Shown: positions 14,387 through 26,092, counted from the first letter of the stretch. The stretch is 64,000 nt of DNA from Acidobacteriota bacterium (GCA_947482665.1 CANKJK010000006.1:144651-208650); one strand, 5' to 3'. Program-made: numbers and translations. Notes: a model not told the origin generated them from the letters alone.

Positions 14387-15049
14387 ATGAAAACGCACGC
14401 GATCCTCGCAGCCGTGATCCTCACGACCGCGGCATCCACGGCGCTGGCGCAGACCCCCGCGCAGCCCATGAGCTTTTTCGTCACCAGCACCGGTGCCGGC
14501 AACGGCGCCAATCTCGGCGGGCTTGAGGGCGCCGACAAACACTGCCAGACACTGGCCACTGCCGCTGGCAGCACGAAGACGTGGCACGCCTACCTGAGCA
14601 CCCAGGCCGAGGGCGGCAAGGCCGCCGTGAATGCCCGCGACCGCATCGGCGCCGGTCCGTGGGTCAACACCAAGGGCATGAAGGTCGCAGACAACGTGGC
14701 GCATCTGCACGGCGACACGCTGGACCAGGCGCGGCTCGGCAATAACCTCAGCCGCACGACCGTCATGACGGAAAAGGGTGAGACGGTGAAGGGCGCCGGC
14801 GACACGCCGAACCAGCACGACATCCTCACGGGCTCGAAGCCGGACGGCACGGCCTTCCCAGCCGGCGAGGACCGCACGTGCAAGAACTGGACGAGCGGCG
14901 CCGACGGTACCGCGATGCTCGGCCACTTTGACCGCACCGGCGGCGGCAACACCTCGTGGAACTCCGCCCACCCGAGCAAGGGCTGCAGCCAGCCGAACCT
15001 CGTCGCCACGGGTGGCGCGGGCCTGCTGTACTGCTTCGCGACCAATTAG
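14387..15049 (+). CDS. secreted endostatin-like (collagen XV/XVIII NC1-type, C-type-lectin-like fold) protein
   Basis: AAGGAGA ribosome-binding site and signal peptide ..AASTALAQ. Blocks GGLEGADKHC..., W.AYLST, C.NW and LLYCFATN align from memory with human endostatin GIRGADFQC..., FRAFLSS, CETW and IVLCIEN. All four Cys positions are included. Confidence 0.55.
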   Translation: MKTHAILAAVILTTAASTALAQTPAQPMSFFVTSTGAGNGANLGGLEGADKHCQTLATAAGSTKTWHAYLSTQAEGGKAAVNARDRIGAGPWVNTKGMKVADNVAHLHGDTLDQARLGNNLSRTTVMTEKGETVKGAGDTPNQHDILTGSKPDGTAFPAGEDRTCKNWTSGADGTAMLGHFDRTGGGNTSWNSAHPSKGCSQPNLVATGGAGLLYCFATN

Positions 15050-16464: not shown

Positions 16465-17211
16465 GTGATGTTGCAGGACCACACGCCCAGGACGACCGTT
16501 CTCACCGCTACTTCCGACGCCACCGCGGCGTCCAAGCTGCAGCTCGTCCACGAAATCGGCAGCCGCCTGGCCGCCGACCTCCCACTGCACTCGGTGCTCC
16601 AGCGGATCGTGGAGGTGGTCTCCACCATCGTCCCGGGCGACTCGTGCTTCATCTACGTGCTGGAGGACGACGCGCTGGTGCTGCGGGCGTCGATGACGCC
16701 CCACCCAGACGAGTTGAACCGGCTCTCACTCAAGATGGGCCAGGGCATCACCGGCTGGGTGGCCGCTCACCGTGAGCCGGTGGCTGTGTCCACGCACGCC
16801 TTTGAGGATCCGCGCTTCGAGATCTTCACGAACCTCCCGGAAGACCGCTACGAAGCCATCCTCTCTGTGCCGCTCTTGAGCCGCGGCCAGGTCGTGGGCG
16901 TGATCAACGTGCAGCACCGGCAACCGCATGCCTACACGGCGACCGAGGTCCGTGCCGTCGCCACGCTCGGGTTTCTCGTCGGGGCGGAGGTCGAGATGGC
17001 GCGGCTGGAGGCCGCCAACTCTCAACTCTCGGAGCAACTGGAGACACGGAAGATCCTCGACCGCGCCAAGGGCATCCTGCAACGCGACATGGGCCTGACA
17101 GAGGAGGAGGCGTATCTGACGATTCAGCGCCAGAGCCGCCAGCGGCGCCGCTCCAAGAGGGAAATCGGCGAGGCCATCATCCTCGCGGAGGATCTGCGCC
17201 GGTCACGGTAG
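16465..17211 (+). CDS. GAF + ANTAR RNA-binding antiterminator-type regulator
   Basis: GAF region (..CFIYVLEDDALVLRAS...GQGITGWVAAHREPV..PLLSRGQVVGVINVQH) followed by ANTAR (LETRKILDRAKGILQRDMGLTEEEAYLTIQRQSRQRRRSKREIGEAII). Confidence 0.85.
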   Translation: MMLQDHTPRTTVLTATSDATAASKLQLVHEIGSRLAADLPLHSVLQRIVEVVSTIVPGDSCFIYVLEDDALVLRASMTPHPDELNRLSLKMGQGITGWVAAHREPVAVSTHAFEDPRFEIFTNLPEDRYEAILSVPLLSRGQVVGVINVQHRQPHAYTATEVRAVATLGFLVGAEVEMARLEAANSQLSEQLETRKILDRAKGILQRDMGLTEEEAYLTIQRQSRQRRRSKREIGEAIILAEDLRRSR

Positions 17212-17341: not shown

Positions 17342-17417
17342 GGGCCGGTAGCTCAATTGGCAGAGCAGCAGACTCTTAATCTGCGGGTTGACGGTTCGAT
17401 TCCGTCCCGGCTCACCA
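17342..17417 (+). tRNA. tRNA-Lys (anticodon CUU), CCA encoded
   Basis: Manual cloverleaf: acceptor GGGCCGG/CCGGCTC, D arm GCTC..GAGC, anticodon stem GCAGA/TCTGC with loop CTCTTAA, T arm GACGG-TTCGATT-CCGTC, discriminator A, then CCA. Confidence 0.95.
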
Positions 17418-17923: not shown

Positions 17924-19249
17924 ATGCTGACTGAAACCACTGGTCCCGCTTCGCTCACGGCGCTGCATCTCGCACTCGGGATGTTCAGACGCCATCGCGC
18001 TGCGGGGCGCAGCTGGTTCAGTCCGTTCGTGTTGCCGTCGTTTCTCTTCATCCTGGTTCCGTGGGTCTGGCCTACACCGGCGGGTCTCGCCGCAGGAGTG
18101 GCCGCACATCTGTTGTGGCTGCTGCTGTGTGAACGCATGGCGCCCACCCCGAAGCACCTGACTCCCGCGCCGGAGGCACACATGCACGCGCCGACTCCCA
18201 GCGTCAGGCCCGTGCCCGCGCCTCCCACCTCTGGCTTCACGCCCGTCTCCGTGCTGGCGGTGCTCGAGGAAGCACCGGGCATCAAGACCTTCCGCCTGGC
18301 GCGACCGGCGGGCTTCGACTTCCTCCCAGGCCAGTGCGTACCAGTCCGCGTCCAGATTGACGGGCGACCTCACGTGCGCTGCTACTCCATCAGCTCAGCG
18401 CCGGACGTGGCCGGCTACATCGAAATCTCTGTCAGGCGTCAGGGGCTCGTCTCCGGCGCCCTGCACGGCACCCTCCGGTCCGGCTCGACGCTGACCATCG
18501 GCCACCCCGCTGGGGCGTTCACCTATCCCGCCGGGGATGACCGCCCGTTGGCGCTCGTGGCCGGAGGCATCGGCATTACGCCGCTGCTCTCTATGGCGCG
18601 ACATGCCATCGCGGCCCAGCCGTCCCGTCCACTGACGCTCCTCTACTCGGTGCGGGGTGAAGGGGACGTCGCCTTCCGCAGTGACCTGCAGCTCCTCGCC
18701 GAGCGGCACCCACAGGTCCGCGTGGTCATCACGCTGTCGGACCAGCCCGACTCAGTACGGTTCCGCGCGGGCCGCATCGACGCCGACCTGCTCCGGCAGC
18801 ATGTGCCCGCGGCCACCGACACGCTCTTCTACCTGTGCGGCCCGGAGCCGATGATCCAGGCCCTGCGCGGCGTACTCATGGGCATCGGCGTCCCGGACGG
18901 CCAGATCCGGTTCGAGCGGTTCGACATGGCGATCGCGGCCGCCCTGGTCAACGACGCGGACGGTCCGGTCTCATCGCCCAAGGCGTCCGCGACGGTCCAG
19001 GTCACCTTCGGTGCAAGCCACCGCACAGTGGCCGCGTCCTGTTCGCGCACGCTGCTGGAAACCGCGGAGGACGCCGGCGTGGCGCTGCCGTCGATCTGCC
19101 GGTCGGGCGTGTGCCTCTCCTGCCGCACCCGGCTGACGTCCGGCACGGCGGACTGCCGCTCCGATGTGCTGGATGCAGCGGACCGCGCGGCCGGATTCGT
19201 GCTGCCGTGCGTCACCCGCCCGACGAGCGACTGCGTCCTGGAGGTCTGA
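17924..19249 (+). CDS. membrane-anchored ferredoxin-NAD(P)+ reductase-family flavoprotein with C-terminal plant-type [2Fe-2S] domain
   Basis: Two N-terminal hydrophobic helices, FAD motif RCYSISS, NAD(P)H motif LVAGGIGITPLLSM, CGP motif YLCGPEPM, and the C-terminal pattern CRSGVCLSCR...LPC (C-x4-C-x2-C...C). The start is uncertain (ATG 17924 preferred; ATG 17876 or 17747 possible). Confidence 0.75.
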   Translation: MLTETTGPASLTALHLALGMFRRHRAAGRSWFSPFVLPSFLFILVPWVWPTPAGLAAGVAAHLLWLLLCERMAPTPKHLTPAPEAHMHAPTPSVRPVPAPPTSGFTPVSVLAVLEEAPGIKTFRLARPAGFDFLPGQCVPVRVQIDGRPHVRCYSISSAPDVAGYIEISVRRQGLVSGALHGTLRSGSTLTIGHPAGAFTYPAGDDRPLALVAGGIGITPLLSMARHAIAAQPSRPLTLLYSVRGEGDVAFRSDLQLLAERHPQVRVVITLSDQPDSVRFRAGRIDADLLRQHVPAATDTLFYLCGPEPMIQALRGVLMGIGVPDGQIRFERFDMAIAAALVNDADGPVSSPKASATVQVTFGASHRTVAASCSRTLLETAEDAGVALPSICRSGVCLSCRTRLTSGTADCRSDVLDAADRAAGFVLPCVTRPTSDCVLEV

Positions 19250-19252
19250 CGG

Positions 19253-20152
19253 ATGGCTCGCGGCACTCCATCGGCACGCGCCTTCAACGCACTGGCGTTC
19301 GCGGGACTCTTCTGCGCGGTGGCGGTTCCGCTGGTGTTGTTCACCTTCGGAGGATGGGAGTACTACCGGGCACCGATTGGCACGCGCGGCTACATGGAGG
19401 CCCATGCCCTGCTCCGGCCCTCAGGCACGATCGGCCTTCCGCTGGGCATCGCCGGTGCCGTCGCGATGTTCTGCACGTTGCCCTACGCAGCCCGGAAGCG
19501 CTCACGCCTGCTCGCCAGGTTTGGCTCCATGCCACGGTGGCTGGAGGTCCACATCTTCTTCGGGACGGTCGGCCCCGTGCTCGTGACGCTGCACACCTCC
19601 TTCAAGTTCAACGGCGTCATTTCGGTCGGCTACTGGCTGATGGCCGCGGTGTGGTCCTCCGGATTCGTGGGGCGCTATCTCTACGTCCGCATCCCGAAGA
19701 CGCTCAGGGGCATTGAGCTGTCCCAGGAGGAGATGAAGGCCGAGATGGCCGAGGCGGACGCGGCGCTGGCCGCCATGGACCTCCCGCCGGATGCGCGGAC
19801 GGCGCTGGATGCGTTCACGCGGGCTGCGTCACCGCAGGACGGCCGCGCCCCTGGGATCGTCGATCTCTTCTTCGGGGAGCTCGCCGTCCGCATCCGCCTG
19901 TTCACGATGCGCAGCCGCCTGCGCGCGGCAGGGGTAGACCTCGCGGTGCTGGACACGGCCGTGGCCAGCGCCACCAGCCGCGCGATCCTGGCGCGCCGGG
20001 TGGCACACCTTCGGCGCACCCGGCAACTCTTCGGTCTGTGGCACGTCTTCCACCGGCCGCTGGTCTACGCGATGTTCGTGATCGTCGGGCTGCACGTGGG
20101 CATCGCCATCTACCTGGGTTACGCCCAGCTGCTGGGATTGGGGGCGCCGTGA
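19253..20152 (+). CDS. polytopic membrane protein with two intramembrane His pairs (putative di-haem b, ferric-reductase-domain-like)
   Basis: About five TM helices. TM3 WLEVHIFFGTVGPVLVTLHTSF has two His 14 residues apart, and the last TM LWHVFHRPLVYAMFVIVGLHVGI also has a pair 14 apart. Only 3 nt separate it from the upstream gene. Its stop overlaps the next gene's start (GTGA). Confidence 0.45.
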   Translation: MARGTPSARAFNALAFAGLFCAVAVPLVLFTFGGWEYYRAPIGTRGYMEAHALLRPSGTIGLPLGIAGAVAMFCTLPYAARKRSRLLARFGSMPRWLEVHIFFGTVGPVLVTLHTSFKFNGVISVGYWLMAAVWSSGFVGRYLYVRIPKTLRGIELSQEEMKAEMAEADAALAAMDLPPDARTALDAFTRAASPQDGRAPGIVDLFFGELAVRIRLFTMRSRLRAAGVDLAVLDTAVASATSRAILARRVAHLRRTRQLFGLWHVFHRPLVYAMFVIVGLHVGIAIYLGYAQLLGLGAP

Positions 20153-21993
20153 GTTCCGTGCCGCGCCCGCGCCACCGTCTGACGAGGCTGACGATCGCTG
20201 TGGTGGCACTGGCCTGCCTGCTGGGCCCGCGCGCCGCGTTCGCGCAACTCGGGGCGCTGGTGTCGCCAGGCCGGCTCCATCGGACGCATGCGGCCCTCGA
20301 GGGCCTCGACAAGTGCCTGCAGTGCCACTCGAAGGGGCGCCAGGTGTCTGTCGAGAAGTGCCTCTCCTGCCACAAGCCCGTGGCCGAACGCATCGCCCTG
20401 AAGAAGGGCATCCACCGTGCGGCAGCCGGGGACTGCGTGCGGTGCCACGTGGAGCATGCCGGAGCGGATAGTCAACTGCGGCCCTTCGATCAATCGAAGT
20501 TCGATCACGCCCGCGACACGGGCTGGGCCATCGACGGCCTCCACGCACCACTGGCGGCCAAGTGCGTGACCTGTCACAAGGAGCGTTCGTTCCTGACAGC
20601 GGGGACGACGTGCATCTCGTGCCATGCGGATCCGCACAAGCCATCCCTCGGCGCACAGTGCACGACGTGTCACAGCACGAGCGCGAAGTTCAAGGCCGCC
20701 ACCGAAACATTTGATCACGCGCGCGCGAGGTTCCGGCTCTCCGGGGCGCATGCCAAGGCGGCGTGCACCGCGTGCCACGTCAAGGGTCAATACAAGGGCG
20801 TCGCCTTCGAGACCTGCGCAAGCTGCCACAAGGACCCGCACCAGTCGCGGATGGGCACCGCCTGCCAGTCCTGCCATTCGGACACCTCGTGGCGGACGGG
20901 CAAGCTCGATCACGCCAGGACGGCCTTCCCCCTGCGCGGCAAGCACGCGGCCGTGGACTGCGTGAAGTGCCACGTCAAGCCGGCGGCGGTCGTAAAAGTG
21001 CGGGCAGACACGTGTGCGGTGTGCCACACGGACCCGCACCAGGGCGGATTCAAGCAGGACTGCGTGGCCTGCCACACGGAGACGACCTTCCAGAAGGGCA
21101 CGTTCGACCACGGCACCACGAAGTTCGCGCTGGCCGACAAGCATGGGGGCCTCACCTGCGTGACGTGCCACAAGGCCGTGCAGGGGAAGAACCTGGACTA
21201 CCGGGGCCTGAAGACCACGTGCGTCTCATGCCACGCGGACGTGCATCAGGGCGAGCTGGGCGCCACCTGTGAGAGTTGCCACTCGGCCAGGACGTGGGAC
21301 GTCAAGGCCTACACGCACCTCAAGCCGCGTAGCTTCTTTGATGGACGCCACCAGCCGTTGACCTGCACGCAGTGCCATCCCAGCACGCTGCAGCCCACGC
21401 GGACCTCCGCGGCGGTGCCCGCCTTGCGCGTCGGCTTCCCGGGAACGGCCACGGCCTGCGTGGCGTGCCACCAGGATGTGCATCTGGGCCAGCTCAAGAC
21501 GGACTGCGAGCGGTGCCACACGATCGACACACCGAAGTTTGCCGTCGCGGTGTTTGACCATGGCCGCACGGCGTTTCCGCTCACAGGGAAACACGGCCCC
21601 GTGAAGTGCGAGGGGTGCCACAAGACCGAGACCGGCGCCTTCCCGTCCGGCCATGGTTCGGCGCGGAAGTTCACTGGCGTCGGCACAGCCTGCGTGGCCT
21701 GCCATGTGGATCCCCACGCCGGGCAACTCGATCGCGCCTGCGAGACCTGCCACACCGTCGACCGCTTTACGCTGCCGGCCTACGTGCATCGGAACGCGAA
21801 GGGACTCAAGAGCTTCTTCTCGGGCCAACACGCTTCCGCGAAGTGCGCGGCGTGTCACAAGCCATCGCCCGCGGACCGCCCTGACAGGCGGGTGCTGGCC
21901 AGCTACGCCACCGTCACGACGTGCACGTCGTGCCACACCGACATTCACCGCGGCGCGCTCGGGCCCGCCTGCAGCAATTGTCACAAGCCATGA
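20149..21993 (+). CDS. multihaem cytochrome c, 24 CXXCH motifs (eight c7/c3-like triheme modules)
   Basis: GTG 20149 overlaps the upstream TGA. Signal peptide ..LLGPRAAFAQ. I counted 24 CXXCH by eye, with a recurring unit FDH..F.L.G.H...CxxCH...CxxCH.D(P/V)H....G..CxxCH. Confidence 0.9.
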   Translation: MSSVPRPRHRLTRLTIAVVALACLLGPRAAFAQLGALVSPGRLHRTHAALEGLDKCLQCHSKGRQVSVEKCLSCHKPVAERIALKKGIHRAAAGDCVRCHVEHAGADSQLRPFDQSKFDHARDTGWAIDGLHAPLAAKCVTCHKERSFLTAGTTCISCHADPHKPSLGAQCTTCHSTSAKFKAATETFDHARARFRLSGAHAKAACTACHVKGQYKGVAFETCASCHKDPHQSRMGTACQSCHSDTSWRTGKLDHARTAFPLRGKHAAVDCVKCHVKPAAVVKVRADTCAVCHTDPHQGGFKQDCVACHTETTFQKGTFDHGTTKFALADKHGGLTCVTCHKAVQGKNLDYRGLKTTCVSCHADVHQGELGATCESCHSARTWDVKAYTHLKPRSFFDGRHQPLTCTQCHPSTLQPTRTSAAVPALRVGFPGTATACVACHQDVHLGQLKTDCERCHTIDTPKFAVAVFDHGRTAFPLTGKHGPVKCEGCHKTETGAFPSGHGSARKFTGVGTACVACHVDPHAGQLDRACETCHTVDRFTLPAYVHRNAKGLKSFFSGQHASAKCAACHKPSPADRPDRRVLASYATVTTCTSCHTDIHRGALGPACSNCHKP

Positions 21994-24074
21994 CGAGGGC
22001 CACCATGACGCGCCTGCTCCGTCTTCTCACGTTGCTGTCCGGCGTCTGGCTGATGGCTGCGCCAGCGTCAGCGCAGTTCGACACGCCGAATCGCCAGTTC
22101 CACGACAAAACCACCTTCCGGCTCGAGGGTAAGCACCTCTCGACGCCCTGTGCGTCCTGCCACCTGAACGAGGTGTACAAGGGCACGCCGCGGCAGTGTG
22201 TCGACTGCCATTGGGTCCGCCGGCAGGATGACCGGTTCAAGCTCCAACTCGGCCGCCAGTGCGAGCAGTGCCACCGGCCCACGGCGTGGACAGGCGCGCG
22301 GTTCGACCATGCCGCCTTGACGTCCATGCCACTCGGCGGCGCGCACCGGCAACTGGCCTGTCAGACCTGCCACAAGAACGGCGACTTCCGCGGCGTACAG
22401 GGTGGCGGCTGCGTGAGTTGTCATCTGAAGGACTACCAGGCGGCCCGCACGCCGAACCACGTCACCGCTGCGTTCCCCACGACCTGCGAGGTCTGCCACC
22501 GGGTCAATGACACCTCATTCCACCAGGCTGGGTTCAACCACGCGGCGGCGTTTCCCCTGGTCGGCCCGCACGCCACGCAGACCTGCGCGGCCTGCCACGC
22601 CAACGGCGTCTACAAGGGCACGGCCCGCGACTGTGTGGGCTGCCACCGCACGGACTACAACCGGACCACGACCCCGAATCACGCCGCCGCTGGCTTCTCG
22701 ACCGACTGCCAGTCGTGCCACAAGGCGACAGAAAGCAGTTTCCGCGGGGCCGGGTTCAACCACACGGCCGTCTTCGCGCTCGTTGGCCAGCACGCGACGC
22801 AGACCTGCACGGCCTGTCACGTCAACAACGTCTACAAGGGCACGGCCCGCGACTGCGTGGGCTGCCACCGCACAGCCTACGACCGGACCACCACGCCCAA
22901 TCACGCCGCCGCCGGCTTCTCGACCGACTGTCAGTCGTGCCATAAGGCGACTGAGAGCAGCTTCCGCGGGGCCGGGTTCAACCACGCGGCCGTCTTCGCG
23001 CTGGTTGGCCAGCACGCCACGCAGACCTGCACGGCCTGCCACATCAACAACGTCTACAAGGGCACGGCGCGCGACTGCGTGGGCTGCCACCGCACGGCCT
23101 ACGACCGGACCACCACGCCCAATCACGCCGCGGCCGGCTTCTCCACCGACTGTCAGTCGTGCCATAAGGCGACGGACAGCAGCTTCCGCGGCGCGAGCTT
23201 CAATCACGCAGCCGTCTTCCCCTTGGTCGGCCAGCACGCCTCACAGACGTGCACCGCCTGCCACGTCAACAGCGTCTTCAAAGGCACGGCCCGCGACTGC
23301 GTGGGTTGTCACCGAGCCGCCTACAACAAGACGAGTGCGCCCAATCACGCCGCCGCTGGCTTCTCCACCGACTGTCAGTCGTGCCATAAAGCGACGGACA
23401 GCAGCTTCCGCGGCGCAAGCTTCAATCACGCGGCCGTCTTCCCCCTGGTTGGCCAGCACGCGACGCAAACCTGCGCGGCCTGCCACGCCAACGGCGTCTA
23501 CAAGGGCACCGCACGCGACTGCGTGGGTTGTCACCGCTCGGTCTACGACAAGACCAGCGCGCCCAATCACGCCGCCGCCGGCTTCTCCACCGACTGTCAG
23601 TCGTGCCACAAGGCGACGGACAACAGCTTCCGCGGCGCGAGCTTCAATCACGCGGCCGTCTTCCCCCTGGTTGGCCAGCACGCCTCGCAGACCTGCACCG
23701 CCTGTCACGCCAACGGCGTCTACAAGGGCACCGCCCGTGACTGCCTCGGCTGTCACCGCTCGAAGTACGACCGGACCAGCTCGCCGAATCACGCCGCCGC
23801 CGGCTTCTCCACCGACTGTCAGTCGTGCCACAGGGCCACCGACTCGTCGTGGGGACAGGGCACCTTCAATCACCGGTTCCCGATCGCATCCGGGCGCCAC
23901 AAGGCGCCGTGCTCGAGCTGCCATCAGAGCGGCACGGCCTACGCCAACTTCACCTGTCTGACGTGCCATGAGCATGCCCAGGCGTCGATGGATAGCAAGC
24001 ATCGAGGCCGCAATGGTTATCGCTATGAGTCACGCGCCTGTTACAGCTGCCACCCGACCGGGCGCGGCGACTAG
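21990..24074 (+). CDS. multihaem cytochrome c, 27 CXXCH motifs (nine triheme modules, six near-identical)
   Basis: ATG 21990 overlaps the upstream TGA (ATGA). Signal peptide ..WLMAAPASAQ. I counted 27 CXXCH by eye, with unit FNH..F.LVGQH...CxACH.N.VYKGTARDCVGCHR..Y..T..PNHAAAGFSTDCQSCH. Confidence 0.9.
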   Translation: MTRATMTRLLRLLTLLSGVWLMAAPASAQFDTPNRQFHDKTTFRLEGKHLSTPCASCHLNEVYKGTPRQCVDCHWVRRQDDRFKLQLGRQCEQCHRPTAWTGARFDHAALTSMPLGGAHRQLACQTCHKNGDFRGVQGGGCVSCHLKDYQAARTPNHVTAAFPTTCEVCHRVNDTSFHQAGFNHAAAFPLVGPHATQTCAACHANGVYKGTARDCVGCHRTDYNRTTTPNHAAAGFSTDCQSCHKATESSFRGAGFNHTAVFALVGQHATQTCTACHVNNVYKGTARDCVGCHRTAYDRTTTPNHAAAGFSTDCQSCHKATESSFRGAGFNHAAVFALVGQHATQTCTACHINNVYKGTARDCVGCHRTAYDRTTTPNHAAAGFSTDCQSCHKATDSSFRGASFNHAAVFPLVGQHASQTCTACHVNSVFKGTARDCVGCHRAAYNKTSAPNHAAAGFSTDCQSCHKATDSSFRGASFNHAAVFPLVGQHATQTCAACHANGVYKGTARDCVGCHRSVYDKTSAPNHAAAGFSTDCQSCHKATDNSFRGASFNHAAVFPLVGQHASQTCTACHANGVYKGTARDCLGCHRSKYDRTSSPNHAAAGFSTDCQSCHRATDSSWGQGTFNHRFPIASGRHKAPCSSCHQSGTAYANFTCLTCHEHAQASMDSKHRGRNGYRYESRACYSCHPTGRGD
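22533..23864 (+). repeat. six tandem 222-bp (74-codon) repeats inside the 27-haem cytochrome gene
   Basis: The TTCAACCAC / TTCAATCAC (FNH) codons that open each unit occur at 22533, 22755, 22977, 23199, 23421 and 23643, exactly 222 nt apart. Long identical nucleotide runs are shared between units. Confidence 0.9.
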
Positions 24075-24092: not shown

Positions 24093-25412
24093 ATGATGCG
24101 CGACCGCTTTCACTGGCTGGCACTCGGGATGACCCTTGGTCTGGCCGCGCCGCTCTGGGCACAGTCCGCACCGCGCCCTGACGCCCGCATCTCGTTCTTT
24201 TTCACCACGGCACGACGGAGCCCTGAGGGCGGGCCGGCACACAACGATGCCGACTTCGCGACCTCCTTTACGTTCAGGACACCGGACCAGGATGCGCCCG
24301 GTCTCGACGCGGGGATCGATATGCGCCACACGGCCTACACGGTCACCGGTCGGCCGCAGCGGATCTCGCTCTACAACCTCTTCGCCGGTGCCCGGCTCGG
24401 GGATCGGGGGCAGGTTCGCGTCCGGGCAGGCCATCTCTGGCTGCCGGACCTGGGCACGGCGGGCGCACTGGCCGGAGGCCTGGCCGAATATCGCAGCCAG
24501 CCGGCCGGGGCGAAGAGCCGACTGGTGACGGGCATCTTCGCCGGGGCAGAGCCCCTCGGGTATGAAGCGGGCTACGCGCCAGGAGTCCGGAAGTTCGGCG
24601 GCTATGCCGCGCTCGAGAGCGGGTTCCTCCGTCGGCATGTGATCGGCTTCGCGAACATCTCGCAGGCAGGCATCACCCAACGGTCGCTGCTGACCGTGAC
24701 CAACTACCTCCCCGCGGGGAAATCCTTCTTTGCCTACCAGGCCCTGGAGTACGACCTGCGCGGGCCGGCCAACGGCGCGGCCACGGGCGGTCTCTCCTAC
24801 TTCCTCGTCAACGCCCGTCAGTCCGCGGGCTCAAAAGTGGAGGTGCAGGGCACCTACAATCGCGGGCGCTCACTCGATGTCCGGCGCCTGGCCGACGACG
24901 TCCTCAATGGCCGCGCGCTCACACCCCAGGCGGTCGACGGTCTCCGCTACGAAAGCGCGGGAGGCCGGGTGAGCGTGAAGGCCTGGCCGCACGTTGAGGT
25001 CTACGCGGGATACGCGCGCGACCGCAATAACAGGGATGACGCCCCGACCGGCCGCCTGACCGTTGGCGGCTACGGCTCGAACCTCTTCGGCGCGGGGCTC
25101 GACATCTCCGCGTCGGACGCACGGATTGATCGGCCCACCGGCCCCTACCACTCACGCTACGTCTCGGTTGGCCGGGCCATGGGCCGGTCGCTCTACGTGT
25201 CGGGCGACTACTCGACGTCACTGGCCGTCGTGCGCTTCCTCCGGAGCGACGGGGTCACCATCGAGACGCGCCCCTGGTCTCGGCGGGTCTCCGGCAGCAT
25301 CTCGGCCACACTCACCCGACAGCTCTCCCTCACCGGCGTCGTCGATGTCACCCGCGATGCGGACATGACCGACGTGCGCATGATGACCGGACTCTCCTAT
25401 CGCTTCAGGTAG
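24093..25412 (+). CDS. putative outer-membrane beta-barrel protein
   Basis: GAGGAGGA ribosome-binding site and signal peptide ..GLAAPLWAQ. There are many short alternating hydrophobic/polar strands with aromatic girdle residues. The C-terminus ..MMTGLSYRFR is barrel-like. Confidence 0.55.
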   Translation: MMRDRFHWLALGMTLGLAAPLWAQSAPRPDARISFFFTTARRSPEGGPAHNDADFATSFTFRTPDQDAPGLDAGIDMRHTAYTVTGRPQRISLYNLFAGARLGDRGQVRVRAGHLWLPDLGTAGALAGGLAEYRSQPAGAKSRLVTGIFAGAEPLGYEAGYAPGVRKFGGYAALESGFLRRHVIGFANISQAGITQRSLLTVTNYLPAGKSFFAYQALEYDLRGPANGAATGGLSYFLVNARQSAGSKVEVQGTYNRGRSLDVRRLADDVLNGRALTPQAVDGLRYESAGGRVSVKAWPHVEVYAGYARDRNNRDDAPTGRLTVGGYGSNLFGAGLDISASDARIDRPTGPYHSRYVSVGRAMGRSLYVSGDYSTSLAVVRFLRSDGVTIETRPWSRRVSGSISATLTRQLSLTGVVDVTRDADMTDVRMMTGLSYRFR

Positions 25413-25417
25413 CCCCC

Positions 25418-26092
25418 ATGTGCATGCTTCGGATCATTCGCGTCTGCTCTCTGGCCGCCCTGGCGGCCATGCCGCTCCTGGCCCGCACGGCCGGGGCACA
25501 GTCCGCTCCCCCTCACGGCGCCAGCAACGCCACACAGATGGTGCGCGCCGCGGGCATGCCCCTCAATGACGGAACCCTTCCTCCTGGCTCCCTGACGGTC
25601 CGCGTGGTGGCCGGAGCCTTCACCGGCGACCTGCGCGGCATCAGCGTCGCACTCGCCGTAGAAGGAGCGCCCGTGCAACGGGCGCTGACCGGCGAGAAGG
25701 GCCGGGCCGAGTTTGCGCACCTGCCGGTGGGTTCGCGGGTTCGAGTATCGACTGTCGTCGGCTCGGAGCCGTTGCAGTCCGAGCTCTTCCCGATGCCTGC
25801 GGAGAGCGGCGTGCGCATCCTGCTGGTGGCGCAAGGCAGCGCCGAGGGCGGCGAGGCTGGCGCCACACCCTCTCTCCCGCTCCCGGCACCGGCCACCTCG
25901 CCCGCGGCACCGGGTGCACCCGCACCAACGGTTCCTGGCCCAGTCGCTGGCCACACCACGGGAGACATATTGATCGTGGCGTTCTTCGGACTCGCCACGC
26001 TCGTCGCGGCGGTCCTGTTTCTGCGCCGGCGCCCGCGCCGCACTCCCGCCGGCACAACGACGCACCACGACACGGCGGCCCCACCGTCGTGA
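25418..26092 (+). CDS. secreted CarboxypepD_reg-like (Ig/prealbumin-fold) domain protein with Pro/Ala-rich linker and C-terminal TM anchor
   Basis: Signal peptide ..ARTAGAQ. Domain block GSLTVRVV..G..L.GISVAL...TGEKGRAEFAHLPVGSRVRV. Linker PSLPLPAPATSPAAPGAPAPTVPGP. TM ILIVAFFGLATLVAAVLFL followed by RRRPRR. Confidence 0.5.
   Translation: MCMLRIIRVCSLAALAAMPLLARTAGAQSAPPHGASNATQMVRAAGMPLNDGTLPPGSLTVRVVAGAFTGDLRGISVALAVEGAPVQRALTGEKGRAEFAHLPVGSRVRVSTVVGSEPLQSELFPMPAESGVRILLVAQGSAEGGEAGATPSLPLPAPATSPAAPGAPAPTVPGPVAGHTTGDILIVAFFGLATLVAAVLFLRRRPRRTPAGTTTHHDTAAPPS

Follow-up and report, generated by a model that had tools for sequence, protein, structure and literature searches.

A candidate NAD(P)H-fed entry module for a PCC3-type porin-cytochrome conduit in an Acidobacteriota bacterium

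The closest described relative of the system treated here is PCC3, a porin-cytochrome conduit first found in Fe(II) oxidisers and discussed as a route of electron uptake, whose inner-membrane protein was described by He et al. 2017 (PMC5566968) as having five helices, an SGxxG motif on helix 4 and a W-x3-H-x13-H motif on helices 3 and 5. The same authors likened it both to the ferric reductase domain (FRD) of FRE and NOX proteins and to cytochrome b, and suggested that it holds two haems b and is connected to the quinone pool; proteobacterial PCC3 was described as a set of four genes without a reductase, and in later papers the function of PCC3 is still given as unverified. Here we analyse a stretch of 64,000 nucleotides (the window) from a soil bacterium of the Acidobacteriota (GCA_947482665.1, CANKJK010000006.1:144651-208650), with a G+C content of ~68% and with Vicinamibacterales (Acidobacteriota) as the nearest named relatives of its proteins. 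Two of its genes, for a flavoprotein and for a membrane protein with two pairs of His residues, stand directly upstream of genes for two very long multihaem cytochromes and a probable porin. The reading that we favour, with confidence somewhat better than even, is that these two genes encode an entry module, located at the cytoplasmic membrane, for a porin-cytochrome conduit of the PCC3 type; the module would be fed by NAD(P)H, carry electrons outward and be independent of quinones. They are adjacent open reading frames on the plus strand, 3 nt apart, with coordinates identical to those of a preliminary description made from the sequence, and their features are as follows.

17924..19249, plus strand: flavoprotein gene, ATG to stop, 441 aa, a membrane-anchored FAD-NAD(P)H-[2Fe-2S] reductase; the start is backed by orthologues.
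17924..18139, plus strand: N-terminal membrane anchor of the flavoprotein (aa 1-72), from hydropathy, AlphaFold2 helices and conservation in 34 orthologues and in alignment A3.
18287..18868, plus strand: FAD-binding domain (aa 122-201) and NAD(P)H-binding domain (aa 211-315), from Pfam, motifs and invariance in A3.
19022..19225, plus strand: plant-type [2Fe-2S] ferredoxin domain (aa 367-434; Cys392, 397, 400 and 429), from Pfam Fer2 and A3.
19253..20152, plus strand: inner-membrane protein gene, ATG to stop, 299 aa, of the type of the PCC3 inner-membrane protein, probably a di-haem cytochrome b, from the AlphaFold2 model, motifs and family.
19529..19594, plus strand: helix 3 of the membrane protein (aa 93-114), with W96-x3-H100-x13-H114, from AlphaFold2 and conservation.
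19616..19690, plus strand: helix 4 of the membrane protein (aa 122-146), with S136-G-x-x-G140, the motif defined by He et al. 2017; G137 and G140 are invariant.
19691..20032, plus strand: predicted cytoplasmic helical insert between helices 4 and 5 (aa 147-260), Arg-rich, from AlphaFold2 helices.
20033..20113, plus strand: helix 5 of the membrane protein (aa 261-287), with W263-H264-x2-H267-x13-H281, from AlphaFold2 and conservation.

The membrane protein is the part of this module that most needs an argument. In the AlphaFold2 model (pLDDT 89.7, pTM 0.82) its helices span 13-31, 61-83, 93-114, 122-146 and ~261-287, and the two His-bearing helices are divided by the insert, ~115 aa in length, which is itself helical (158-174, 179-192, 202-225 and 230 onwards). 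The preliminary description had singled out His residues 14 positions apart in each of two transmembrane helices, and this holds: His100 and His114 lie in WLEVHIFFGTVGPVLVTLH (aa 96-114), and His267 and His281 lie in FHRPLVYAMFVIVGLH (aa 266-281). By simple arithmetic, a spacing of 14 residues corresponds to ~21 Å along a helix and to positions within 40 degrees of each other on the helical wheel, i.e., on the same helix face. Since positive charges are concentrated in the insert and in the loop of residues 79-95, the N-terminus should be inside and helices 3 and 5 should both run from inside to outside; being parallel, these helices would therefore bring His100 and His267 close to the cytoplasmic surface of the membrane and His114 and His281 close to the periplasmic one. 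The same-leaflet arrangement that had been named beforehand as incompatible with bis-His haem is thus not what the predicted structure gives. Among 105 full-length representatives that share 25-49% identity with the query, conservation is 100% for His100, 99% for His114, 96% for His267 and 94% for His281, and it is 89% for His264, a third His of helix 5; the conservation of the His residues was repeated in alignments A1 and A2, and the pattern is not one of chance. On helix 4, which carries S136-G-F-V-G140, the invariant glycines are small residues. The family is large, with 1,120 matches in a word-indexed search and 2,475 clusters (50% identity) at E<=1e-3 in an exhaustive search, all of them annotated as hypothetical, and the window protein has no Pfam or NCBIfam match at E<=0.01 and, by sequence, no match among all PDB chains at E<=10. 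From this sequence pattern we consider the protein a probable di-haem cytochrome b.

For the flavoprotein, Pfam, NCBIfam, PDB sequence searches and Foldseek are concordant: it is a FAD-NAD(P)H-[2Fe-2S] reductase of the FNR/phthalate dioxygenase reductase (PDR) type. It scores over the curated Pfam thresholds for FAD_binding_6 (39 bits), NAD_binding_1 (77 bits) and Fer2 (46 bits), and the motifs for which it was first noticed are present as claimed, with RCYSISS at aa 152-158 (nt 18377-18397), GGIGITP at aa 214-220 (nt 18563-18583) and the 2Fe-2S ligands as C392-x4-C397-x2-C400...C429. R152, Y154, S155, G215, G217, P220 and the four Cys ligands are invariant across the 120 homologues of A3, and the order of the three domains, with the signatures R-x-Y-S, G-G-x-G-x-x-P and C-x4-C-x2-C...C, fits the PDR/PaaE/Hcr architecture. 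Its sequence matches in the PDB are the P450 reductase GcoB, benzoate dioxygenase reductase and phthalate dioxygenase reductase; for its AlphaFold2 model (mean pLDDT 87.3), the best Foldseek matches are 7YLR and 2PIA (E ~1e-23), followed by flavohaemoglobin, cytochrome b5 reductase and NqrF. It reaches no NCBIfam equivalog cut-off, the best being PaaE (TIGR02160) at 183 versus 420.8 bits, with the Hcr-type NADH oxidoreductase (NF007964), BenC, MmoC and NqrF far under theirs. Identity as a NOX/FRE-type dehydrogenase was rejected: NAD_binding_6 gives only 25.9 bits, beneath the 77 bits of NAD_binding_1, FAD_binding_8 gives no match in Pfam, and no NOX dehydrogenase is found among the 50 Foldseek matches listed.

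The flavoprotein is also built to sit on the membrane. Its anchor comprises helices at aa 6-25, 37-48 and 52-72 (AlphaFold2, pLDDT 86-95), with hydrophobic segments at aa 30-49 and 51-69 by hydropathy, and is followed by a disordered Pro-rich linker (aa 73-105). The protein has no signal peptide, and a cluster of Arg residues (R22-R23-H24-R25) precedes the hydrophobic hairpin, so that the catalytic domains should be cytoplasmic, and not periplasmic, the placement that would have been at odds with the preliminary description. In the 34 orthologues and A3, the conserved residues of the anchor are His15, R-x-H-R, P-S-x-x-F...P-W, His61, Trp65 and Cys69-Glu70. This anchor, like His264 and the insert of the membrane protein, goes beyond what the preliminary description had noted.

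As a separate observation, the conserved His15, His61, Trp65 and Cys69-Glu70 lie within or at the end of the anchor helices throughout loci L001-L043, which exceeds the needs of a passive anchor; they may mark where the anchor meets the membrane protein, or a site for an additional cofactor, and His15 and His61 in particular raise the possibility of the latter. In a Vicinamibacterales-like contig (L001, 8682-9997), the flavoprotein was called as two genes, one of 206 aa with the FAD domain and one of 232 aa with the NAD and Fer2 domains, as the result of either an assembly frameshift or a genuine split.

Downstream, the cluster continues on the plus strand with four genes.

20149..21993, plus strand: multihaem cytochrome 1, 24 CXXCH in eight ~66-aa three-haem repeats, with a signal or anchor helix.
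21990..24074, plus strand: multihaem cytochrome 2, 27 CXXCH in 74-aa three-haem repeats.
24093..25412, plus strand: 439-aa secreted protein, probably an outer-membrane beta-barrel (the conduit porin), from its signal peptide, orthologue C-termini and synteny.
25418..26092, plus strand: 224-aa secreted protein with a hydrophobic C-terminal tail, kept in the closest relatives only.

The GTG start of cytochrome 1 overlaps the stop of the membrane-protein gene (GTGA) and the start of cytochrome 2 overlaps the stop of cytochrome 1 (ATGA); these overlaps, following the 3-nt gap between the flavoprotein and membrane-protein genes, argue for coupling as an operon. The 439-aa protein has no Pfam match, and its orthologues terminate in G-L-T-Y/F-R-F(R), an outer-membrane beta-signal; its gene is syntenic in most related loci. 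This is the company of PCC3, published as a periplasmic cytochrome of 21-27 haems, a second large cytochrome and a porin and represented here by the 24- and 27-CXXCH cytochromes and the probable porin. Moreover, the membrane protein has all the published features of the PCC3 inner-membrane protein, namely a length of ~300 aa (299), five helices, W96/H100/H114 and W263/H267/H281, and SGxxG, and the 24-haem cytochrome matches the periplasmic cytochrome of PCC3 in Leptothrix cholodnii both in its number of haems and in the layout of its repeats. The assignment to PCC3 is one of motif, layout and published description rather than of direct alignment with the proteobacterial founders (Sideroxydans, Leptothrix). 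In two look-ups among clusters of more distant family members, the only names were of Ignavibacteriales or Krumholzibacteriia, and none was a proteobacterial PCC3 name. Pfam and NCBIfam scans of the window cluster found no quinol-dehydrogenase gene of the NapC/CymA, CbcL or ImcH type.

Several features of the cytochrome genes were noted in passing. After its signal or anchor helix, cytochrome 1 starts with a conserved Q-L-x-x-L-V-S-P-G-x-L motif, and in the first cytochrome of every cluster examined (window 20149-20300; L005, L082 and L086) a sequence Q-L/I-S-P-G-x-L-x3-H-x2-L-x-G stands ahead of the first CXXCH; this motif may be a contact with the outer face of the membrane protein. The gene for the 27-haem cytochrome contains a 222-bp tandem repeat (22533-23843, plus strand; 74 aa and three haems per unit, 5.9 copies, 88% identity), which suggests a recent expansion and is a region liable to mis-assembly.

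In the mechanism that we propose, the flavoprotein would be held at the inner membrane face by its N-terminal helices, where NAD(P)H would be oxidised at the FAD and single electrons passed to the C-terminal [2Fe-2S] cluster. From there, electrons would enter an inner haem b held between His100 of helix 3 and His267 of helix 5, near the cytoplasmic face, and cross to an outer haem b held between His114 and His281, near the periplasmic face. The outer haem would in turn reduce the 24-haem cytochrome, the product of the next, translationally coupled gene, which would hand electrons on through the probable porin and the cytochrome of 27 haems to an acceptor outside the cell, e.g., Fe(III), Mn(IV) or humic quinones. 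The route would bypass the quinone pool. The insert between helices 4 and 5, which occupies the position of the NOX D-loop, could plausibly serve as the docking surface for the reductase. Haem binding, physical association of the flavoprotein with the membrane protein, the outward direction, NADH or NADPH as the reductant and the identity of the external acceptor are our inferences. Outward flow would be downhill and electrogenic in the direction favoured by the membrane potential, and because of this the module should dispose of reducing equivalents or reduce metals, not build proton-motive force. The same reasoning bears on the opposite direction, in which extracellular Fe(II) or reduced humics would feed the cytochromes, then the membrane protein, then the flavoprotein and finally NAD(P)+. 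The discovery of PCC3 in Fe(II) oxidisers and its discussion as an uptake route (PMC5566968) speak for such inward flow, but by thermodynamic reasoning it would be uphill by several hundred millivolts, it would move negative charge toward the side that is already negative, with nothing in the cluster to serve as a coupling device, and the carriers are heterotroph-type Acidobacteriota, Bacteroidota and Ignavibacteria. We therefore regard inward flow as highly improbable.

Support for the NAD(P)H-fed, outward reading comes above all from what accompanies the membrane protein elsewhere. Cluster components were located by tblastn in 84 related loci, the genome scan having given the closest 80 of >583 loci, none of them proteobacterial, with the narrower alignment A2 as query and hence a bias to nearer clades. 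In loci of the Acidobacteriota type (Vicinamibacterales, Holophagales, Thermoanaerobaculia and others), the FNR-Fer2 flavoprotein gene is on the same strand in 41, lying ~500 nt or less upstream of the membrane-protein gene in 38, and the latter is followed by the genes for both cytochromes and for the 439-aa protein. The FNR-Fer2 protein is missing from the loci of Ignavibacteria, Bacteroidota, Calditrichota and Zixibacteria, of which 36 of 41 have in the cluster an unrelated reductase of ~444 aa instead. This reductase has a transmembrane helix at its N-terminus, two [4Fe-4S] motifs and a domain for pyridine nucleotide and FAD (Pyr_redox_2/3), and a small TPR protein is often encoded close by. 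Altogether, a membrane-anchored flavo-Fe-S reductase belongs to the same-strand cluster in 77 of the 84 loci, with two unrelated families in the same position, and multihaem cytochromes accompany the membrane protein in 81, as expected from the proposal in the preliminary description that the dehydrogenase and the His-pair protein, as separate polypeptides with a 2Fe-2S relay, feed such cytochromes. Five apparent fusions (P0170, P0221, P0232, P0250 and P0260) were rejected as such and judged to be frameshifted read-throughs of neighbouring genes, and these confirm the gene adjacency.

Related clusters also occur on plasmids. A complete cluster of the second type (L085, 5854-18438) resides on plasmid pEMTOL02 of a cultured Bacteroidota strain, Emticicia oligotrophica DSM 17448, in the order ccsA, membrane protein, "NAD(P)-binding domain-containing protein", two cytochrome c3-family genes, a 538-aa hypothetical protein and a GW-domain protein; the CcsA cytochrome c biogenesis protein, of 1,028 aa, is encoded directly ahead of the cluster. 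On proteobacterial metal-resistance plasmids (Sphingobium, Methylophaga, Alteromonas) there is a third anchored FNR-Fer2 form, of 610-640 aa, in which a signal peptide is followed by a Met/His-rich stretch in the periplasm, a single membrane-spanning helix and FNR-Fer2 domains on the cytoplasmic side. Its partner, 242 aa long and homologous to the membrane protein at 27% identity (E 4e-6), retains all of the motifs and is followed by a multihaem cytochrome of ~240 aa. Thus, beside one family of membrane proteins the same place is taken by three flavin/Fe-S reductases of different build, all of them anchored in the membrane and facing the cytoplasm, and this swapping of reductase partners supports a path from NAD(P)H via flavin, Fe-S centre and two haems b to a multihaem cytochrome.

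The third form also raises the question of purpose. In Sphingobium sp. SYK-6 pSLPG (L086, 3998-7355) and in L088 and L089, the small module is followed by DUF1622 and a copper-binding four-helix-bundle protein, and this small proteobacterial plasmid module may be a copper-linked periplasmic reductase system. The same wiring could in principle serve the window organism for assimilatory or protective reduction of ferric or cupric ions, or for NOX-like generation of extracellular superoxide, with the cytochromes as a terminal reductase for soluble metals or O2 and not as a bulk electron sink. FRE, STEAP and NOX use such wiring for just these jobs, and the genes of the small proteobacterial version are found in islands for resistance to copper and heavy metals, with a flavoprotein that carries a Met/His-rich segment typical of copper-binding proteins. 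However, the 51 haems of the two window cytochromes, together with the probable porin, are a hallmark of a trans-envelope conduit and excessive for a reductase of soluble metals, and a scan of open reading frames and Pfam domains found no metal-resistance genes adjoining the cluster within the window. Such another purpose for this wiring is, in our estimate, improbable.

Against the reading that we prefer, an NAD(P)H-fed entry module of a PCC3-type conduit, there are results of two kinds, concerning the nature of the membrane protein and concerning its electron donor and benefit. As to the first, the window protein lies beneath all Pfam thresholds, the best match being DUF4405 (PF14358; 16.1 bits with a cut-off of 26.7, E 0.016); it gives no match to PF01794 (FRD) even at E<=1; a Foldseek search of its AlphaFold2 model against the PDB is non-significant (best E 0.34, TM<=0.25); alignment of the family profile with E. 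coli MsrQ by hhalign is likewise non-significant; and haem in this family is deduced from sequence and model. The Foldseek matches, from which NOX, DUOX and STEAP are absent, are to coiled-coil and ABC-transporter proteins only and are probably driven by the cytoplasmic insert, which may mask a match of the core, so that this negative is a weak one. In the hhalign comparison the only stretch aligned pairs H267/H281 with MsrQ H151/H164, a curiosity that we do not use as evidence.

When 92 family members were scanned singly against Pfam at E<=1, sub-threshold matches were obtained to DUF4405 in 65 (best 5.7e-6), Ferric_reduct in 39 (best 2.8e-5), Ni_hydr_CYTB in 26 and PepSY_TM in 3; recurrent matches are confined to di-haem cytochrome b families, all others occurring in three members or fewer, and one homologue carries a precomputed match to PF14358. 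DUF4405 itself binds haem b, as established by expression and a haemochrome assay, and has been likened to MsrQ and the PepSY-like FoxB (PMC11334425). These matches bear on a further possibility, that the membrane protein is not a haem protein at all and that its His residues bind another metal or serve in transport or sensing. The lack of any family or fold match over threshold would suit this notion, yet it does not account for two H-x13-H pairs on parallel helices with SGxxG on the intervening helix, for weak matches to di-haem cytochromes only, or for redox proteins that are always present on both sides of the membrane; it is, in our view, scarcely tenable.

The comparison with NOX, FRE, STEAP and MsrQ drawn in the preliminary description is therefore one that we can keep only in part. 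The pattern and depth of the His residues, from sequence and model helices, match the bis-His arrangement of the FRD (helices 3 and 5, one haem per leaflet, the haem here being predicted), and the weak di-haem Pfam matches point the same way. However, the protein has five helices versus the six of the FRD, with its C-terminus ending after helix 5 in the AlphaFold2 model, and because of this, of the sub-threshold scores and of the missing fold match it cannot be filed as an FRD protein; membership of the FRD/NOX family is not demonstrable, and the expected likeness to solved NOX/FRD structures did not appear. As all four His are kept, it resembles NOX/FRE, with two haems, more than MsrQ/STEAP, with one haem and a flavin. 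As far as computation allows, the initial interpretation is otherwise supported.

As to the donor and the benefit, three loci (L005, L078 and L082) have no reductase gene, while in two others (L051 and L065) the contigs end too early for its presence to be judged. The reductase-less loci and the four-gene proteobacterial PCC3 clusters mean that a second donor, such as quinol, must be possible, and since L078 and L082 retain the membrane protein, the reductase is not obligatory in cis. In both of these (L078, 7977-9491; L082, 7923-9414) a small TPR or transmembrane protein lies beside the membrane protein; L078 is near succinate dehydrogenase-like genes, and L082 has cytochromes. Moreover, export of electrons from NAD(P)H conserves no energy, which clouds its physiological benefit and adds to the case for a purpose such as metal reduction or superoxide generation.

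The reductase-less loci and the four-gene clusters speak for the published PCC3 model of He et al. 2017 (PMC5566968), in which the membrane protein exchanges electrons with the quinone pool, like the cytochrome b of bc1 or of NiFe-hydrogenase, and in which the neighbouring flavoprotein would be an accessory, e.g., for priming, repair or a side branch. The weak Ni_hydr_CYTB matches are consistent with this model, as is the precedent of MsrQ, which co-purifies with ubiquinone. For MsrQ, however, the quinone-donor idea was later rejected on redox potentials, and the current view is that its donor is NAD(P)H, by way of Fre, and not quinol (PMC12525009). An accessory role is hard to square with anchored reductases of two unrelated families in one position across nearly all of the same-strand clusters, and the quinone model offers no explanation for exchangeable reductases. 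We consider it unlikely on the whole, and a possible account chiefly of the clusters that have no reductase.

The remaining neighbours of the operon appear to have little to do with it. A tRNA-Lys(CTT) gene (17342-17417, plus strand) lies between the gene for a GAF-ANTAR regulator (16465-17211) and the flavoprotein gene, with ~500 nt of non-coding DNA between the tRNA and the operon. The regulator was ruled out as a part of the system, since the tRNA gene intervenes and the regulator is missing from all 84 related loci. Further upstream (14387-15049, plus strand) is the gene for a 220-aa secreted protein with weak sub-threshold matches to an endostatin/DUF1554 fold and to outer-membrane proteins of the Leptospira LenA/LenB type; it is unrelated to the module.

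To our knowledge, the well-studied routes of extracellular electron transfer in Gram-negative bacteria all leave the cytoplasmic membrane via quinol dehydrogenases (CymA, ImcH, CbcL and CbcBA). For PCC3, a system with a wide distribution in iron oxidisers and in many further bacteria, the inner-membrane step has been a matter of conjecture since 2017. The main text of He et al. 2017 (PMC5566968) mentions no FAD, ferredoxin or NAD(P)H donor and no Acidobacteria, and a search of the literature on NAD(P)H-linked PCC3, HX13H and DUF4405 with multihaem cytochromes yielded nothing beyond that paper and a 2024 paper on DUF4405. Thus, the NOX-like reading of the membrane protein has already been published as a hypothesis, while the link to a flavoprotein appears to be new; in the literature searched we found no earlier account of a systematic association between PCC3-type conduits of common soil phyla and anchored flavo-Fe-S reductases that use NAD(P)H, nor of the quinone-independent entry that this would mean. 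The two genes most likely serve to drive electrons from the cytoplasm into giant multihaem cytochromes, a putative route of wide distribution. A bolder generalisation, on which we are evenly divided, is that phyla abundant in soil and sediment, namely Acidobacteriota (Vicinamibacterales and others), Ignavibacteria, Bacteroidota, Calditrichota and Zixibacteria, share a quinone-independent machine for trans-envelope export, a "split bacterial NOX" wired to a nanowire, in which an anchored reductase would dock on a five-helix di-haem protein plugged into cytochromes of 20-50 haems and a porin, the reductase being an exchangeable cartridge recruited at least three times independently. If the membrane protein is indeed supplied by a dedicated NAD(P)H flavoprotein, electron export in these organisms would be a redox-balancing valve rather than respiration, which would alter the reading of multihaem-cytochrome gene counts in soil and peat metagenomes, and the NOX/FRE principle, from flavin via two haems to the outside, would have a modular bacterial form with an Fe-S relay. 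With the module comprising only two genes, and with a complete cluster on the plasmid of the cultured E. oligotrophica DSM 17448, the question is directly testable in a ready experimental system.

Several known systems share parts of this design, and none shares all. PCC3 (He et al. 2017; Hoover et al. 2023, PMC10734462) has the ~300-aa five-helix H-x13-H protein, the cytochrome of three-haem repeats, the second large cytochrome and the porin, but in Proteobacteria it consists of four genes in a different order, with the proposed link to the quinone pool, while the window operon is headed by the gene for an anchored NAD(P)H flavoprotein. Supplementary Table 6 of He et al. 2017 (PMC5566968) also lists triads without a porin, each with a multihaem cytochrome, an H-x13-H membrane protein and another redox protein, which follow the same three-part logic as the window module; they differ in having membrane proteins of 190-310 aa, cytochromes of 7-10 haems and no porin, and the paper neither names the identity or domains of the third protein nor proposes an NAD(P)H donor. 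The plasmid modules of Sphingobium, Methylophaga and Alteromonas are triads of this kind, with an FNR-Fer2 flavoprotein as the redox protein. Among haem-b proteins, DUF4405, the PepSY-like FoxB (PDB 7ABW) and FezC are likewise small bacterial membrane proteins with four conserved His, haem b and outward electron flow. However, they have six or four helices versus five here, Foldseek drew no link to 7ABW, and their partners are flavinylated proteins, siderophore reduction or ferrosomes, not Fe-S flavoproteins and multihaem cytochromes.

With NqrF and PDR the flavoprotein shares the NAD(P)H-flavin-[2Fe-2S] unit, and NqrF, too, is membrane anchored and passes electrons to membrane subunits; in NqrF, however, the 2Fe-2S domain comes before the FAD domain and the protein is part of the six-subunit Na+ pump Na+-NQR, while PDR is soluble and serves oxygenases. 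The E. coli MsrPQ system, with Fre, is the nearest in its division of labour, since it is also split, with a separate cytoplasmic NAD(P)H flavoprotein passing electrons to a membrane cytochrome b and on to a periplasmic redox protein, and it has the same history of debate over quinone versus NAD(P)H as the PCC3 membrane protein. It differs in that MsrQ has one haem plus FMN and six helices and that Fre is soluble, has no Fe-S centre and is encoded apart from msrQ. Finally, the NOX/FRE enzymes (PF01794 with FAD_binding_8/NAD_binding_6) are the nearest in principle: cytoplasmic NAD(P)H and flavin supply two stacked haems b for one-electron export, with two His pairs on helices 3 and 5, both of which run from inside to outside. 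NOX is a single polypeptide of six helices in which the FAD of a NOX-type dehydrogenase directly reduces the inner haem; the window module would do the same work with two polypeptides, a five-helix membrane protein with an insert of ~115 aa, an added 2Fe-2S relay, a dehydrogenase of the PDR/FNR type and a multihaem cytochrome as the acceptor.

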